Positions 10,801-16,157 of a stretch of DNA of 64,000 nucleotides are shown here, in pieces. Each line of letters opens with the position of its first letter. The stretch's first letter is position 1. The position numbers and the translations under genes were made by a program. The notes under the pieces were generated by a model. That model saw only the letters and a program-made list of their open reading frames with translations, was not told where the DNA came from and ran no database searches. Source of the stretch: an uncultured archaeon (lineage in GTDB: Archaea > Asgardarchaeota > Lokiarchaeia > Sigyniarchaeales > SOKP01); contig CAZALK010000001.1 of the NCBI GenBank assembly GCA_964486045.1, positions 32,001-96,000 on the forward strand, written 5' to 3'.

Positions 10801-11361
10801 TTATTTTATCGGACCATTAATAATATGATTGTTAATTAACACTTGGATGACTAATTTCTTAAAAGCGTTTTCTACATTATCCCCATTTTTAGCACTTGTC
10901 TCAATAAAATCAATCGCACTTATTTTCCCTGCCACTTCTTTTCCCTTTTCTGTCGATACAACTTTCGAGAGTCCTAAATCCTTTTTATTCCCGATAAGAA
11001 CATAAGCTGGATTTTTCTCGGTAAATTCTTTAAAATCCTTCAACCACTTAATTTCGATACTCTTGAGTGTGGATTGTCTAGTTATGTCATATATAAACAA
11101 CGCACCCATACACCCTTGAAAAAACATTCTACGGGATAGATCATATTTGTCTTGTCCGGCAATATCCCACAGAACTAACCGTATGTTAGCATTTACATCA
11201 TCTAAGATTATATCTTTGGTAAGTATATTAACTCCTAAGGTTGGTTGATAATCGGCTTTAAACCGATGCTGGATGTATTGAGTAATAAGGGAAGTCTTAC
11301 CTACAGCTGGATCTCCTAGTAGAGCTAGCTTTAAAACGAAGTTCTGATGTTTTCCTGACAT
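10801..11361 (-). CDS. Rab-like small GTPase
   Basis: GDPAVGKTS, WDIAGQD, NKKD, ETSAK. Confidence 0.95.
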   Translation of the reverse strand: MSGKHQNFVLKLALLGDPAVGKTSLITQYIQHRFKADYQPTLGVNILTKDIILDDVNANIRLVLWDIAGQDKYDLSRRMFFQGCMGALFIYDITRQSTLKSIEIKWLKDFKEFTEKNPAYVLIGNKKDLGLSKVVSTEKGKEVAGKISAIDFIETSAKNGDNVENAFKKLVIQVLINNHIINGPIK

Positions 11362-11559
11362 TTTTAATAAACCTTTAATTTATGTTAATTTTTTAATCCT
11401 TTTTCTTTAGTTCCTAATTAATTGATTATACATGCATGATAGATTCAGATTTTTTATATTTGAGCAAAAATAAAACGGCTATTTTTTAGCAGAAAACAAC
11501 CGTAATGGAAATACCATCACATTTTTAAAATTAATTATCCTTAATTATAATATTAACCT

Positions 11560-11710
11560 GGATGTGGATGTTGTGAATGTGTATACTAATTTCTTAAAAT
11601 CAATACAAAAAATATTTACTGTCTCATCTGCAATTATTATTAATTAAATTAATTTCTTTATGAAGTGAATTTTCACAACATTACTCCGCATCCCGCTTCA
11701 TAAATAAAGA
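11560..11710 (+). promoter_or_regulatory. Putative attenuator-like leader of ileS with competing helices
   Basis: 11560-11577 pairs with 11672-11693 (8+10 bp); alternatively 11657-11667 pairs with 11694-11704 (11 bp). Confidence 0.55.
11573..11647 (+). CDS. Putative ileS leader peptide (MNVYTNFLKSIQKIFTVSSAIIIN)
   Basis: GTG 11573 (alternatives 11564, 11579) 6 nt after SD-like GGATGTG at 11560-11566; ATT ATT ATT at 11633-11641; TAA at 11645-11647. Confidence 0.55.
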   Translation: MNVYTNFLKSIQKIFTVSSAIIIN

Positions 11711-11801
11711 TATTGGTGATTTAAAACCAAAAATTGCGAATAAATATTTGTTTTTATTAATTAGTTAAATGAATGAAAATGCTACAATTATGGTGTAATC
11801 T

Positions 11802-14657
11802 ATGTCGTATAATGAAAAAGAAATAGAACTCATCCAATTTTGGAAAAACAATCATATATTTGAAAAAAGTGTTGAGGAAAGACCTAAGAAACTACCATAT
11901 ATTTTCTATGACGGTCCACCTTTTGCAACAGGATTACCTCATTACGGTCATATATTAAGTTTTGTTACCAAAGATGTGTTTCCAAGATATTGGACGATGA
12001 AAGGGTATCGTTGTGAGAGAAGGTGGGGTTGGGATTGTCATGGTCTCCCAATAGAAAGCATTTGTGAAAAAGCTCTAAATTTAAAACAAAAAAATGAAAT
12101 CTTCGAGATGGGTTTATCAAATTTCAATGAATATTGTCGATCAAGGGTATTATGGTATACTAATGAATGGAAAAATACTGTTGAACGAATGGGTAAATGG
12201 ATAGATTTTGATAATTCCTATAAAACTATGGATAACACTTATATGGAAACTGTGTGGTATATTTTCAAAAAAATCTATGAGGAAGGATTTGTATATAAGG
12301 GAAGAAAAGTATTATTTTATTGTCCTCGGTGTGAAACTCCACTTTCTAACTCAGAGATTTCTATGGATAATAGCTATAAAGACATTATTGAGGAATCTAT
12401 AACAGCAAAATTTGAGTTGAAAGAAGAACCAAGAACTTTTCTTCTAGCTTGGACTACAACACCCTGGACTTTAATAGGAAATGTAGCTTTAGCCATAAAT
12501 AGCGAACTCATGTATGTTAAAATTAAAATTGATGAAGAATTTTTAATTTTAATAAAAAACAAATTGGATATTATCAAAGATGAATATCAAATCATTGAGG
12601 AATTTAAGGGAAAAGAACTGCTAAATAAAAAATATTACTCCTTATACCAAACTTCCACTAATCACAATGGAAATGGTCATATTGTTATTGATGGTGGTGA
12701 AGATGTACTATCCGATGAAGGAACAGGAATTATACACATTGCTATTTACGGAGAATTTGATTATGAGATGATAAAAAAGTATAATTTACCAATAATTCAG
12801 CATATTAATGAACATGGTGAGTTGATAAGTGGTCCGAAAGATTGGATTGGAATATGGTTTAAAGATGTAGATAAAAAAGTCTTGAAGGACTTGAAACAGA
12901 GGAATCTTTTATTCAATTCGGAAGATTACACGCATTCTTATCCTTTTTGTTATAGATGTGATACTCCATTATTTTATAATGCTCTAGATGCCTGGTTTAT
13001 AAATATTCAACAAATAAAACCGCGTCTTTTGGAAACAAATGAAAAAATAAAGTGGTATCCTAAAGAGATTTCTAAACGATATCAAAACATAGTTGAAACT
13101 GCTCCTGACTGGTGCATTTCTAGAAATCGGTTTTGGGCTACGGCTATGCCGATCTGGATGTGTGAGGACTGTAACGAAACCAAAGTTATTGGTTCTATTA
13201 AGGAATTACAAGAGAATGCGATGGAGGAAGTTCCCGACAATCTGGATCTACACAGACATATAGTTGATGAGATACATCTTTGGTGCGCAGGATGTAACAA
13301 GGTCATGAATCGTATCCCAGAAGTATTTGATTGTTGGTTGGAATCAGGTTCAATGCCATATGCTGCAAAACATTACCCATTTGAAAACGTGGAATGGTTT
13401 GAAACCAATTTTCCTAGCGATTTTGTTTCGGAATATATCGGACAGGTTAGAGCGTGGTTTTACTATATGCATGTAGTATCAGTTCTTTTGGTTGATAATA
13501 TCCCATTTAGAAATGTCGTTGTAAATGGTAATATCCTTGCAGAAGATGGAACTAAGATGTCGAAGTCAAAGAGAAATTTCCCAGATCCTAATAAAATTGT
13601 TGAAAAATATGGAGCGGACGCTTTAAGGATCTATCTTTTATCTTCGCCTTTAATGAGAGCTAAGGACTTAAACTTTAAAGAGGAGATAGTTAAACAAGTT
13701 TATCGAAGATTTAATTTATTGCTAATTAATGTTCTAAAATTCTATTCAATGATTGAAATCAACGATTTAGCCGTAGATCTAACCAAATCAGATAATATTA
13801 TGGATAAGTGGATTATTAGTATGCTTAATGTCTTAATTCGTGAGGTTACTCAACGAATGGATGACTACGACACTGCAGAAACAAGTAAGTTATTCTTTAA
13901 TTTTGTCGAAGATCTCTCTACTTGGTTTGTTAAAAATAGCAGAGATCGATTTAAAAGTGAAATTGAAAGTATAAAAATATCTACGATGAACACACTTTCG
14001 TATGTACTTTCTAATCTATCAAAACTCTTAGCTCCTCTTACTCCGTTCATTTCAGAGGTGATTTACCAAAAATTGAAGGAAAAGGGAATAGTTAATTTAA
14101 ATTCTGTCCATTTGGAACCTTGGCCCATTTTTAATGAAAAATTAATCGATCTTAAGATGCATGAGAATATGATACTAACAAAAGATATAGTGACGAGATC
14201 ATTAGAATTAAGAGAAAATTCTAAGATACTAATTAGGCAAGTATTACAGAAAATAACAATAAGGGGGGTAAGTCTTAAAACTGAGTATTTAGATATCATT
14301 GCGGGAGCTATAAATGTGAGAAATGTAATAATTGAAAACGGTGAAAAAAAAGAACTTTTAATTGATTTAGATACAGAAATTACACCAGAATTAAGGCTTG
14401 AAGGTATTTCAAGAAATCTAATTAGGTATCTGAATAATTATAGAAAAAAATTGAATCTATCAACGAAAAATAGAATTAATCTCTATTTAGTAACAAATAA
14501 TGAAGACATTTTGAAAGCACTTGAAATATATGAAGAAAAAATTAAAAAATTTATACAAGCAGATAACATTATTAAAAATATCGAAGATCAGATGGATACT
14601 AAGAAATTCAAAATAGATAATAGCATTATTGAAGCATATATAGAGGTTAAAAATTAA
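11802..14657 (+). CDS. ileS: Isoleucyl-tRNA synthetase (archaeal/eukaryote-type)
   Basis: DGPPFATGLPHYGH, GWDCHGLP, WTTTPWTL editing domain, DWCISRNRFW, KMSKS. Confidence 0.97.
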   Translation: MSYNEKEIELIQFWKNNHIFEKSVEERPKKLPYIFYDGPPFATGLPHYGHILSFVTKDVFPRYWTMKGYRCERRWGWDCHGLPIESICEKALNLKQKNEIFEMGLSNFNEYCRSRVLWYTNEWKNTVERMGKWIDFDNSYKTMDNTYMETVWYIFKKIYEEGFVYKGRKVLFYCPRCETPLSNSEISMDNSYKDIIEESITAKFELKEEPRTFLLAWTTTPWTLIGNVALAINSELMYVKIKIDEEFLILIKNKLDIIKDEYQIIEEFKGKELLNKKYYSLYQTSTNHNGNGHIVIDGGEDVLSDEGTGIIHIAIYGEFDYEMIKKYNLPIIQHINEHGELISGPKDWIGIWFKDVDKKVLKDLKQRNLLFNSEDYTHSYPFCYRCDTPLFYNALDAWFINIQQIKPRLLETNEKIKWYPKEISKRYQNIVETAPDWCISRNRFWATAMPIWMCEDCNETKVIGSIKELQENAMEEVPDNLDLHRHIVDEIHLWCAGCNKVMNRIPEVFDCWLESGSMPYAAKHYPFENVEWFETNFPSDFVSEYIGQVRAWFYYMHVVSVLLVDNIPFRNVVVNGNILAEDGTKMSKSKRNFPDPNKIVEKYGADALRIYLLSSPLMRAKDLNFKEEIVKQVYRRFNLLLINVLKFYSMIEINDLAVDLTKSDNIMDKWIISMLNVLIREVTQRMDDYDTAETSKLFFNFVEDLSTWFVKNSRDRFKSEIESIKISTMNTLSYVLSNLSKLLAPLTPFISEVIYQKLKEKGIVNLNSVHLEPWPIFNEKLIDLKMHENMILTKDIVTRSLELRENSKILIRQVLQKITIRGVSLKTEYLDIIAGAINVRNVIIENGEKKELLIDLDTEITPELRLEGISRNLIRYLNNYRKKLNLSTKNRINLYLVTNNEDILKALEIYEEKIKKFIQADNIIKNIEDQMDTKKFKIDNSIIEAYIEVKN

Positions 14658-14732
14658 TTTCTCTATTTTTCAATATCAAAATTAATTTAAAACTCCGTAA
14701 AATTATTATGGTTTTTTATGCTTTTCTTTGTT

Positions 14733-16157
14733 ATGCTCAAAATCTATAACACAATGACAAGAGAGAAGGGAATTTTTACACCGCTCGAAAAAGGTCATGT
14801 GAAGATCTACACATGCGGTCAAACAGTTTATGATGATGTACATATTGGTAATGCAAGAACATATAGTTCTTGGGATGTAGTAGTTCGATATTTACGTTAT
14901 AAAGGATACATTGTATTTCATGTTCAGAATTTTACAGATGTTGGTCATCTAACTGATGATGCTGACCAAGGAGAAGATAAAATAGAAAAAAGAGCACGAG
15001 AGCAAAAAGTTAATCCCTGGGAGTTGGTTGATAAACAGATCCAAGAATATTGGTATGTAATTGATAATCTAAATATAGATAGGCCAAATATTACACCAAG
15101 AGCAACGTCACTCATTCCTGAAATGATTGAACTTGTTGAAATACTTTTGGAAAAGGGGTATGCCTATGAAGTACAAGGAAATGTTTATTATGATATTTCG
15201 AAATTCAGTGATTATACAAAACTTTCTAGGTTAAAACTTGATGAAGAACAAGCAAAAGCCCGAGTTAAACAAGATCCCCTTAAAAGGAGCTATTTTGATT
15301 TTGCACTATGGCTAAATGCTCAAAAAGGTGATAAAAAACATATAATGAGATGGAGATCTCCATGGGGAGAAGGATACCCTGGATGGCATCTTGAATGTTC
15401 TATTATGGCGATGAAATATTTAGGGGAGACAATTGATATTCATGGTGGAGGAATCGATCATATCCCCACTCACCATCCAAATGAAATCGCTCAAGCGGAA
15501 GCTGCAACAGGAAATCAGTTTGTTCGCTGTTGGATGCATGCTAAGTTTATAACATTAAATGGTAAAAAGATGAGTAAAAGCCTTGGAAATTATGTAACTG
15601 CCCGTGAACTAATTGATAAGCATGGAGGATTAGTAGTAAGAATGGGTTTAGTATCTGGACACTATAGATCTGCTGTTGATTGGAATCCAGATGTTATTGA
15701 AAATGCTAAGAAGAATATTTCAAGAATTCAAAACTGTTTAAGTTTAATAAAGGATTCCATCGGTGGGACAAACGAAAACCTAAATCAAGCTATGGAAGAT
15801 GTAAAAAATTCCTTTGAAGAAGCTATGGATGATGATTTTAATTCCCCTAAAGCACTCTCTGCGATTCATGAATTTATTACAAAAATAAATTCATCGCTGA
15901 ATAACAAGAAGGATTTACTTATTGGAGCAAGAGACACACTACTAGAGTTACTTGGTGTTTTTGGTCTTGATTTCACAAAAAAGAAGGGAATAGATGATGA
16001 TAAAATAAATGAGTTAATGGATCTCATATTTAACATTAGGGAAATTGCTAGAAATGAAAAGAATTATGAATTAAGTGATCAAATAAGGGAAAAACTACGA
16101 ACTGTAGGGATTCAAATTGAAGATACAGAAAACGGTCCACGGTGGAGAATGACTTAA
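14733..16157 (+). CDS. cysS: Cysteinyl-tRNA synthetase
   Basis: YTCGQTVYD..HIGNAR, DFALW, GYPGWHLECS, HHPNE, KMSKS; start placed at MLKIYNT. Confidence 0.97.
   Translation: MLKIYNTMTREKGIFTPLEKGHVKIYTCGQTVYDDVHIGNARTYSSWDVVVRYLRYKGYIVFHVQNFTDVGHLTDDADQGEDKIEKRAREQKVNPWELVDKQIQEYWYVIDNLNIDRPNITPRATSLIPEMIELVEILLEKGYAYEVQGNVYYDISKFSDYTKLSRLKLDEEQAKARVKQDPLKRSYFDFALWLNAQKGDKKHIMRWRSPWGEGYPGWHLECSIMAMKYLGETIDIHGGGIDHIPTHHPNEIAQAEAATGNQFVRCWMHAKFITLNGKKMSKSLGNYVTARELIDKHGGLVVRMGLVSGHYRSAVDWNPDVIENAKKNISRIQNCLSLIKDSIGGTNENLNQAMEDVKNSFEEAMDDDFNSPKALSAIHEFITKINSSLNNKKDLLIGARDTLLELLGVFGLDFTKKKGIDDDKINELMDLIFNIREIARNEKNYELSDQIREKLRTVGIQIEDTENGPRWRMT

Follow-up and report, generated by a model that had tools for sequence, protein, structure and literature searches.

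Can a ribosome that reads a short leader peptide control the gene for an aminoacyl-tRNA synthetase in an archaeon? The question is raised by a locus in a stretch of DNA of 64,000 nucleotides (nt), referred to as the window (contig CAZALK010000001.1, positions 32,001 to 96,000), from an uncultured member of the Lokiarchaeia whose genome comprises 5.18 Mb with 31% G+C. The intergenic region concerned (11500–11810) has a Ras-family GTPase gene upstream on the minus strand (10801–11361) and, downstream on the plus strand, a 951-codon gene for an isoleucyl-tRNA synthetase (IleRS), here called ileS2 (11802–14657). A preliminary description, made from the window alone, had proposed that a small open reading frame (ORF) with a run of Ile codons, followed by competing helices, forms a ribosome-dependent attenuator in front of this gene. 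Comparison with related genomes indicates that the element is probably a ribosome-read sensor of charged tRNA-Ile, which controls the accessory gene ileS2 in cis. A ribosome stalled on the Ile run would free a 5′ segment of the leader RNA (A) for pairing with a segment (D) in the loop of the hairpin that follows the leader stop codon (C:E), block that hairpin and raise ileS2 expression.

The leader ORF and its linkage to ileS2

The leader ORF (11573–11647, plus strand) has 24 codons and a stop and encodes V/M-NVYTNFLKSIQKIFTVSSAIIIN*. It begins with GTG at 11573 and ends GCA ATT ATT ATT AAT TAA, the stop lying at 11645–11647, 154 nt before the ATG of ileS2 at 11802; in the list of ORFs for the window it is given as 11564–11647, counting from an upstream in-frame GTG. 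Length, position and the five Ile codons, three of them in tandem, agree with the preliminary description.

Among 54 genomes of the genus, all 30 ileS2 loci have exactly one copy of GGATGTGG 240–275 nt upstream of the gene, with the ORF in frame. The leader is also present at nine of nine ileS2 loci of a sister genus and on three of three more distant contigs, whose IleRS2 proteins are 65–69% identical. A covariance model built from the 30 leaders and searched over 135 genomes of the family finds a single copy in 39, exactly the carriers of ileS2, and none in the 96 genomes without the gene. Leader and gene keep the same orientation and close spacing across 65–100% protein identity. The upstream neighbour varies, being the divergent GTPase gene in the window, a co-oriented gene in most congeners and others, for example FtsZ/PNPOx, on the distant contigs. 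As the upstream neighbours differ between loci, the leader travels with ileS2.

The 39 distinct leaders are 20–25 codons long and all are in frame. Length differences among the 30 congeneric leaders amount to −4, −2 or +1 codons with no frameshift, and at every locus the indels are of whole triplets. The start codon, GTG in the window, is ATG in the other 29 congeners and in five more distant loci that were inspected. The consensus peptide of the congeners is MNKNTKFLGFxQNMIKIISTIIII*, with a variable, polar N-terminal half and a hydrophobic C-terminal part; in most sequences there are 5–7 Ile residues within the last 9–10 codons. Leader peptides of the same design, MNRFTFNKLKVSNLIMIISTIIIL, MNKQVFFEVLALIIMIIPSKIIIE and MNEKSKFLVSTPNFIEIISEIIIQ*, are encoded on the contigs with 65–69%-identical IleRS2 and in the sister genus.

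The putative regulatory run ATT ATT ATT (11633–11641) is invariant in 39 of 39 distinct leaders. The fourth Ile codon is exchanged synonymously between ATC, ATT and ATA in the main clade, and its position is occupied by R, N, S, G, L, E, Q or K in other clades. The invariant nucleotides of the leader region fall in segment A, part of segment B, the ATT ATT ATT run and parts of segments C, D and E (described below). Peptide variation is thus confined to the codons outside segment B and the Ile run, a pattern that a leader peptide would be expected to show. ORF, Ile run and helices are kept in every orthologous locus examined.

Other identities for the element were considered. ARAGORN finds no tRNA in it, and as a single-copy sequence in a 5.18-Mb genome it does not behave as a repeat or a miniature element with terminal inverted repeats. 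A chance ATT run in AT-rich DNA is countered by conservation at 39 of 39 loci. Rfam cmscan of 11000–12200 at E ≤ 10 gave chance-level matches only, with no T-box and no Thr, His, Trp, Leu or Phe leader. The 18 bacterial sequences that match a loose GATGTGG..ATTATTATT..CCACATC pattern all fail the covariance model, and an origin of the leader outside the Asgard group was rejected, the nearest non-Asgard IleRS2 (Micrarchaeota, 57% identity) having no leader.

The downstream gene encodes an accessory IleRS

The ileS2 product (951 aa) scores 813 bits on TIGR00392 (cut-off 621); MupA and MupB are the next best models, each below its own cut-off. Its best PDB matches are cytoplasmic IleRS, and the second-best entry, 8c8u (isoleucine-tRNA ligase), is one that we take to be the Priestia megaterium IleRS2. 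From these matches, the protein is classed as a type-2 (eukaryote-like, MupA/IleRS2-like) IleRS, a member of an inhibitor-tolerant class.

The genome encodes a second true IleRS, IleRS1 (1049 aa; G000:C1:894469–897618), which scores 792 bits on TIGR00392 and is 31% identical to IleRS2. The 1049-aa type is present in 18 of 18 congeners sampled, and no leader ORF was found in the region upstream of its gene, ileS1. The distribution of ileS2 is patchy. Of the 54 genomes of the genus, 30 carry it, and in one sister genus 9 of 42 do (39 of 135 for the family as a whole); outside these two genera none was found among 400 genomes (85 genera) of the phylum. The gene that had been named ileS does encode a true IleRS; it is, however, an accessory gene of type 2, carried by 39 of the 135 family genomes, and IleRS1 is the housekeeping enzyme.

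Competing helices in the leader RNA

Segment A (11558–11577, CTGGATGTGGATGTTGTGAA) is the 5′ arm of the structure and includes the leader start codon. The sequence GGATGTGGA is invariant here in 30 of 30 congeners, and the segment has two alternative partners, B and D, with covariation in both pairings. Segment B (11623–11631) lies within the ORF and adjoins the Ile run on its 5′ side; most relatives have CATATCCAC here, and in the window B is a weak partner. Segments C (11657–11667, TTTATGAAGTG) and E (11694–11704, CGCTTCATAAA) are the 5′ and 3′ arms of the post-stop hairpin, and E is followed by A-rich sequence with no U-run. Segment D (11672–11693), for which there is also covariation, lies in the loop of C:E and pairs with A through an inner part (11672–11681) and an outer part (11686–11693).

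Two of these helices had been recognized in the window, and both are borne out. The 11-bp hairpin TTTATGAAGTG/CGCTTCATAAA consists of ten Watson–Crick pairs and one G·U. The pairing of its loop with the leader start region joins GGATGTGG (11560–11567) to CCGCATCC (11686–11693) and ATGTTGTGAA (11568–11577) to TTCACAACAT (11672–11681), and this two-part A:D pairing (11560–11577 with 11672–11693) is the minimum-free-energy fold of the window sequence. The z-score of that fold is only −2.26, so that the single sequence is weak evidence by itself. A switch between the two structures had also been proposed; A:D and C:E are indeed mutually exclusive and covary, but a third helix, A:B, had been missed, and with it the sensing segment that immediately precedes the Ile run.

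Pairs were counted in the 39 distinct leader sequences (alignment A3). The outer A:D helix (8 bp) is 100% paired and includes one G-C to A-U double change, while the inner helix is 75% paired, with CG in 19, UA in 11 and UG in 4 sequences at one pair. C:E is 95.8% paired, and five of its pairs have changed on both sides (for example GC 33/AU 6, and CG 15/UG 14/UA 10). A:B is 96.2% paired in A3 (96–98%), with three pairs changed on both sides; its pair 9:71 is GU in 27 sequences and GC in 12, with no other combination. When the partner was slid by 1–3 columns as a control, pairing fell to 28–53%, and 10 double-changed pairs were observed as against 5.6 in shuffles. G·U intermediates are tolerated in the helices, and A·C does not occur. 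Loci L098 and L080, from a near-identical species pair, are distinguished by a compensatory change within the inner helix (C-G to U-A), and in the distant locus L057 segments A, B and D are altered together (AGATGTGG, CCCATCT and CCACATCT). RNAalifold independently predicts A:B and C:E. A bulge-helix-bulge splice motif formed from A:D was set aside, as judged by eye the internal loop (1–2 versus 4–7 nt) does not fit.

Since A:D crosses C:E and shares segment A with A:B, there are two exclusive states, A:B plus C:E or A:D. When each state is forced, the mean energy gap is 1.6 kcal/mol (SD 7.6). With a ribosome-footprint mask on the Ile run, the predicted ensembles favour A:D (P > 0.5) in 38 of 39 sequences and, by the same threshold, C:E in none of 39. 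Because B is immediately 5′ of the Ile run, a paused ribosome would cover it, and in these models the exclusive helices are so placed that a ribosome stalled on the run would select one fold.

Cognate leaders at other synthetase genes

A survey of other synthetase genes in the same genome, suggested by the preliminary description, yielded leaders for Leu and Phe. An accessory archaeal-type LeuRS gene (LeuRS2; G000:C21:37772–40627) is present in only 4 of 54 congeners, and in all four carriers a 27-codon ORF lies upstream (G000:C21:37452–37535, L060:353–436) which ends GTT TTA TTA TTA TAA, that is VLLL* (VLLM* in one genome). The Leu locus shares its two-hairpin layout with the Ile leader, one hairpin joining a 5′ segment to the Leu-codon segment and the other being a post-stop hairpin that starts at the stop codon. 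At one Leu leader locus, L063, there is neither a T-run nor a TATA-like box between leader and gene.

The pheS gene (G000:C1:944682–946232) has a Phe-rich ORF, MTKQVYVSSALVIHNPVSFFIKFFNLPRD*, about 200 nt upstream (L061:1830–1919, minus strand). It is kept as ..SFFFKFFILPRE* in 19 of 22 usable congeneric pheS loci, and on inspection by eye the four final codons double as the 5′ arm of a hairpin. Conserved mini-ORFs with clustered cognate codons at three synthetase genes are the signature expected of translation-based sensing.

As a separate observation, in nine congeners (G064, G047, G037, G032, G001, G043, G006, G065 and G060; for example L138, L144 and L146) a single in-frame stop (TAA, TAG or TGA) interrupts the first 300 codons of pheS. 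This could represent a small mRNA intron, or a break in sequencing or assembly.

Proposed mechanism

During normal translation, A would pair with B and the post-stop hairpin C:E would form, giving a default OFF state. If Ile-tRNA(Ile) became scarce, through Ile starvation or inhibition of IleRS1, the ribosome would stall on the Ile run and cover B. Segment A would then be released to base-pair with D, inside the loop of C:E, and C:E would be blocked; this ON state would raise ileS2, providing a back-up enzyme of the inhibitor-tolerant type-2 class. On comparison of the masked with the unmasked ensembles, the co-transcriptional default may be taken to be A:B plus C:E, and the fold adopted in starvation to be A:D.

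The step from the switch to ileS2 is the most uncertain part of the mechanism. Our best guess is that the output is read-through from the leader into ileS2, the OFF state leading to premature termination or decay, with an oligo-T run, or a factor such as aCPSF1/FttA that acts on spacer RNA free of ribosomes, as the possible cause. Read-through is preferred in view of the cis linkage and of the Leu locus L063, where no promoter-like box separates leader and gene.

Putative promoter elements and the predicted transcript start

The TATA-like box 1 of the leader promoter (TTTTTAAAA, 11522–11530, plus strand), in which TTTTT.A is invariant in 30 of 30 congeners, resembles the TTTTTTAA-type motif upstream of tRNA genes in the same genome. 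It lies 28–30 nt 5′ of GGATGTGG in the congeners, in the sister genus and in L059, and at the distant loci L056 and L057 other TATA-like boxes (TTATATAC and TTATAAAA) are found at the same 28–30 nt. The usual archaeal spacing from box 1 would put the transcription start site (TSS) at about 11551–11556, and segment A would lie inside the RNA. A second AT-rich box (TTAATTATAATAT, 11541–11553, plus strand) is near-invariant in alignment A2 and lies 20 nt before the leader start; it may act as a promoter-proximal element, or else serve as an alternative TATA box. The covariation found 5′ of the start codon argues for a TSS set by box 1 rather than by the second box.

The promoter layouts of ileS1 (G000:C1:894400–894470, L159:400–470) and of the leader (11520–11575) are alike, each consisting of TTTTTTAG, 11–12 nt, TTTAAA(A)TAT, 20 nt and ATG. 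This may represent standard promoter architecture (a TATA box with an AT-rich proximal element) or shared regulation. A pairing of UACC upstream of the TATA box with the GGUG of ileS2 was considered and rejected; it is four base pairs long, is placed 5′ of the predicted TSS and is lost beyond the genus. The interval separating the leader promoter from the GTPase gene (11475–11521) contains, on its minus strand, two overlapping hairpin-plus-T-run sites (two found as against 0.1 expected), and the upstream regions of the congeners do not retain this hairpin.

The output step and alternative explanations

A number of observations weigh against the proposed sensor. The TSS, the co-transcription of ileS2, the translation of the ORF and the induction are all points that we infer from sequence. 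If the second AT-rich box were the TATA box, transcription would begin at the leader start and give a leaderless mRNA without A. The ATT ATT ATT run shows no synonymous change, which a constraint on the RNA itself could also explain. In the window itself A:B is weak, with 7 of 9 positions paired, two of them G·U, and a longest continuous run of 6. The unmasked predicted ensembles are mixed, with A:D in 26 of 39 and A:B plus C:E in 9; as A:D is favoured at equilibrium without a ribosome in those 26, the OFF state must be a kinetic, co-transcriptional fold. Ribosomes queuing during starvation could keep A occupied, which would reverse the logic, and the assignment of ON and OFF accordingly rests on analogy.

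The same applies to the spacer between E and ileS2. There is no U-run directly after C:E, where the sequence continues as AUAAAUAAAG and is A-rich, and no hairpin-plus-T terminator site was found on the plus strand of 11350–11900. RNAalifold on 40 sequences gave 0 pairs of conserved structure in the spacer. The T-run is absent (T3–T4) in five of six spacers of the sister-genus type (72 nt), and the run matches the local TATA consensus TTTTTTAA at about 45–50 nt from the start codon; in every lineage the AT-rich box about 41–65 nt before the ileS2 start is TATA-like. The likeness to a bacterial attenuator drawn in the preliminary description thus extends to the ORF with cognate codons and to the competing helices, but not to a hairpin-plus-U terminator, the spacer having no conserved structure and the sister genus mostly lacking the T-run. 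A search for a conserved E:F helix (E with the spacer), of the antiterminator/terminator kind, was likewise negative: by-eye pairings occur in single clades, and none is predicted over the 40 sequences.

T-runs of five or more act as terminators in archaea. A T-run of at least five is present in 35 of 41 spacers, 36–72 nt (mostly 38–59 nt) past E. In the window, where several T-rich tracts had been noted near 11745–11760, it is represented by the T5 run at 11751–11755, and the several tracts were not borne out. This T-run, within the TTTTTATTAA box (11751–11760, plus strand), could from the spacer comparison be either an oligo-T terminator of the leader or the TATA box of ileS2; the sister genus has a TTTATAAAA box about 45 nt upstream of the ATG. 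With a TATA-like T-run or AT box so near the gene, ileS2 may also, or only, use its own promoter, and its TSS may lie downstream of 11650.

It is on this box that the strongest of the alternatives depends, in which the leader is an independent small transcript (a short ORF or a structured small RNA) that ends at the T-run, ileS2 being transcribed solely from its own promoter with the same T-run as TATA box; the linkage would then reflect synteny, action in trans or transcriptional interference. Such a transcript would fit the general knowledge of T-runs of at least five as archaeal terminators, the match of the T-run/AT box to the TATA-like motif of tRNA genes, the roughly constant distance of 41–65 nt from box to ileS2 start, including loci without a T-run of at least five, and the spacer without conserved structure. 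It is nevertheless considered unlikely. The co-occurrence of leader and ileS2 is perfect (39 of 39 carriers; 0 of 96 non-carriers), with constant orientation, close spacing and changing upstream neighbours, and the Ile run matches the enzyme, as the Leu and Phe leaders match theirs. In addition, the Leu locus L063 has neither a T-run nor a TATA-like box before the gene.

Translational attenuation of the erm/cat type, in which stalling would expose the Shine–Dalgarno (SD) sequence and start of ileS2 while transcription is constitutive, appears less probable still. The layout is ermC-like, with a leader ORF, alternative helices and a clear GGTG SD. This SD (11792–11795, plus strand) is near-invariant, with one G invariant and the other three bases at 90% or more, and is a good match to the 3′ end of the organism's 16S rRNA (..GGATCACCTCCT), to which it is complementary; the leader's own GGATGTG, described earlier as SD-like, is a poor match to the anti-SD of the same tail. 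However, the ileS2 SD lies 72–239 nt past the last helix (E), and no part of the spacer enters into conserved pairing. Thermodynamic prediction for the forced states gives an unpaired probability of the SD/start of 0.44 versus 0.41, higher in the A:D state in 17 of 30 sequences. Masking of the SD by either fold was rejected accordingly, the predicted accessibility being equal.

It is also very improbable that a transcription factor sits over the promoter and TSS and uses GGATGTGG and its two inverted copies (B and D) as DNA operators, with the ORF and helices as by-products. Segment A does lie where archaeal repressors typically bind, with the AT-rich boxes on one side and the leader start on the other, and the three copies change together in L057 (AGATGTGG, CCCATCT and CCACATCT). 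Against this, helices of unrelated sequence (C:E and the inner A:D) covary too, and the variation follows RNA rules, as at pair 9:71 (GU 27, GC 12, other 0). The in-frame ORF, the triplet-only indels and the invariant Ile run would also be left unexplained.

A functional hydrophobic micropeptide as the product of the ORF, for instance a type I toxin, with its mRNA silenced by a long-distance 5′–3′ interaction, is scarcely credible: A:D does sequester the start region as in hok/tisB-type mRNAs and the C terminus is hydrophobic (IIII), but a peptide of 20–25 residues with a polar, poorly conserved N-terminal half has no membrane-spanning stretch, the element never occurs without ileS2 and is found once per genome, and the same design recurs with Leu and Phe runs before the LeuRS and PheRS genes.

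Start codon and neighbours of ileS2

At main-clade ileS2 loci (L013–L021 and others), the codon aligned with the ATG of the window (11802–11804) is ATT or ATA. It is situated 6 nt past the near-invariant GGTG, and an in-frame GTG lies within the SD itself, 9 nt upstream. This would imply near-cognate AUU/AUA initiation in the main clade, or else a GTG start without an SD.

In the window, cysS (14718–16157) follows ileS2 on the same strand after a 61-nt gap (14658–14717). An ileS2–cysS operon is possible, and would be specific to the lineage of the window. Other genes follow the IleRS2 gene on the more distant contigs; their strand is opposite to that of the IleRS2 gene in L056, L057 and L059 and identical to it in L058.

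Comparison with known systems and implications

Ribosome-mediated leader-peptide attenuators of bacteria include E. coli ilvL-ilvGMEDA, thrL, trpL and pheM-pheST, the last in a synthetase operon. The archaeal locus resembles them in its short leader ORF with cognate codons clustered near the end, and in the same-strand gene downstream. In both, the segment that bears or adjoins the codons pairs with a neighbour, and a stalled ribosome would redirect pairing to an exclusive helix. It differs in its archaeal host and in the lack of any sequence or Rfam similarity. The topology is also distinct: in place of the bacterial 2:3 versus 3:4 choice, the 5′ arm A would be freed and reach over the stalled ribosome to a hairpin loop, in a pseudoknot-like manner. 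Neither alternative here is a G+C-rich hairpin with a U-run. Without such a terminator, the effector step has to work otherwise than in bacteria.

In E. coli tnaC-tnaA, a leader-peptide stall blocks Rho-dependent termination, and free Trp is sensed in a ribosome at the stop codon. As in the archaeal locus, the output does without a terminator hairpin and the position of the ribosome would gate the access of a factor to an untranslated spacer; an aCPSF1/FttA version of this is plausible and purely conjectural. Unlike tnaC, which has no competing helices, the Ile leader has them, and hungry codons are presumed to be what it senses. In ermC and cat, too, a stall in the leader ORF rearranges helices, but these systems sense a drug-bound ribosome and unmask an adjacent SD, whereas the SD of ileS2 is 72–239 nt away and is predicted to be equally accessible in both states.

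The nearest physiological parallel is with the T-box-controlled ileS1/ileS2 pair of P. megaterium, which likewise combines a constitutive housekeeping IleRS with an accessory type-2 IleRS of the same class (10.1101/2022.02.09.479832). There, IleRS2 is induced about 70-fold, via a T-box, when IleRS1 is inhibited by mupirocin (10.1101/2022.02.09.479832). Expression of the accessory enzyme in P. megaterium responds to the charging state of tRNA-Ile, and the same response is presumed here. A T-box, however, binds uncharged tRNA directly and requires no translation, whereas in the archaeal leader the translated Ile run is the presumed sensor.

No archaeal leader-peptide attenuator was found in a full-text literature search, although absence there is no proof. 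The sensor itself is classical, and the novelty lies in the archaeal host, in the topology and in the lack of a terminator. The comparative data support the sensing half of the mechanism about as well as sequence alone can. More tentatively, and at somewhat less than even odds in our estimation, the Asgard archaea may possess a class of ribosome-read cognate-codon leaders, represented in this genome by those for Ile, Leu and Phe, which control synthetase genes without a terminator hairpin. The output of such a class would be specific to the eukaryote-like transcription machinery of archaea, through access of aCPSF1/FttA gated by structure or by the ribosome, or through distant oligo-U termination.

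Leader-peptide attenuation is a textbook consequence of the coupling of transcription and translation in bacteria, and the host here belongs to the archaeal lineage closest to eukaryotes. The locus therefore offers a concrete, mutable object for testing whether a trailing ribosome and nascent RNA structure can steer the elongation or termination of archaeal RNA polymerase. As regards the organisms themselves, the findings suggest that an inducible spare IleRS of inhibitor-tolerant type is maintained, as in Bacilli, and this points to selection in their sediments by natural IleRS inhibitors or by limiting Ile.

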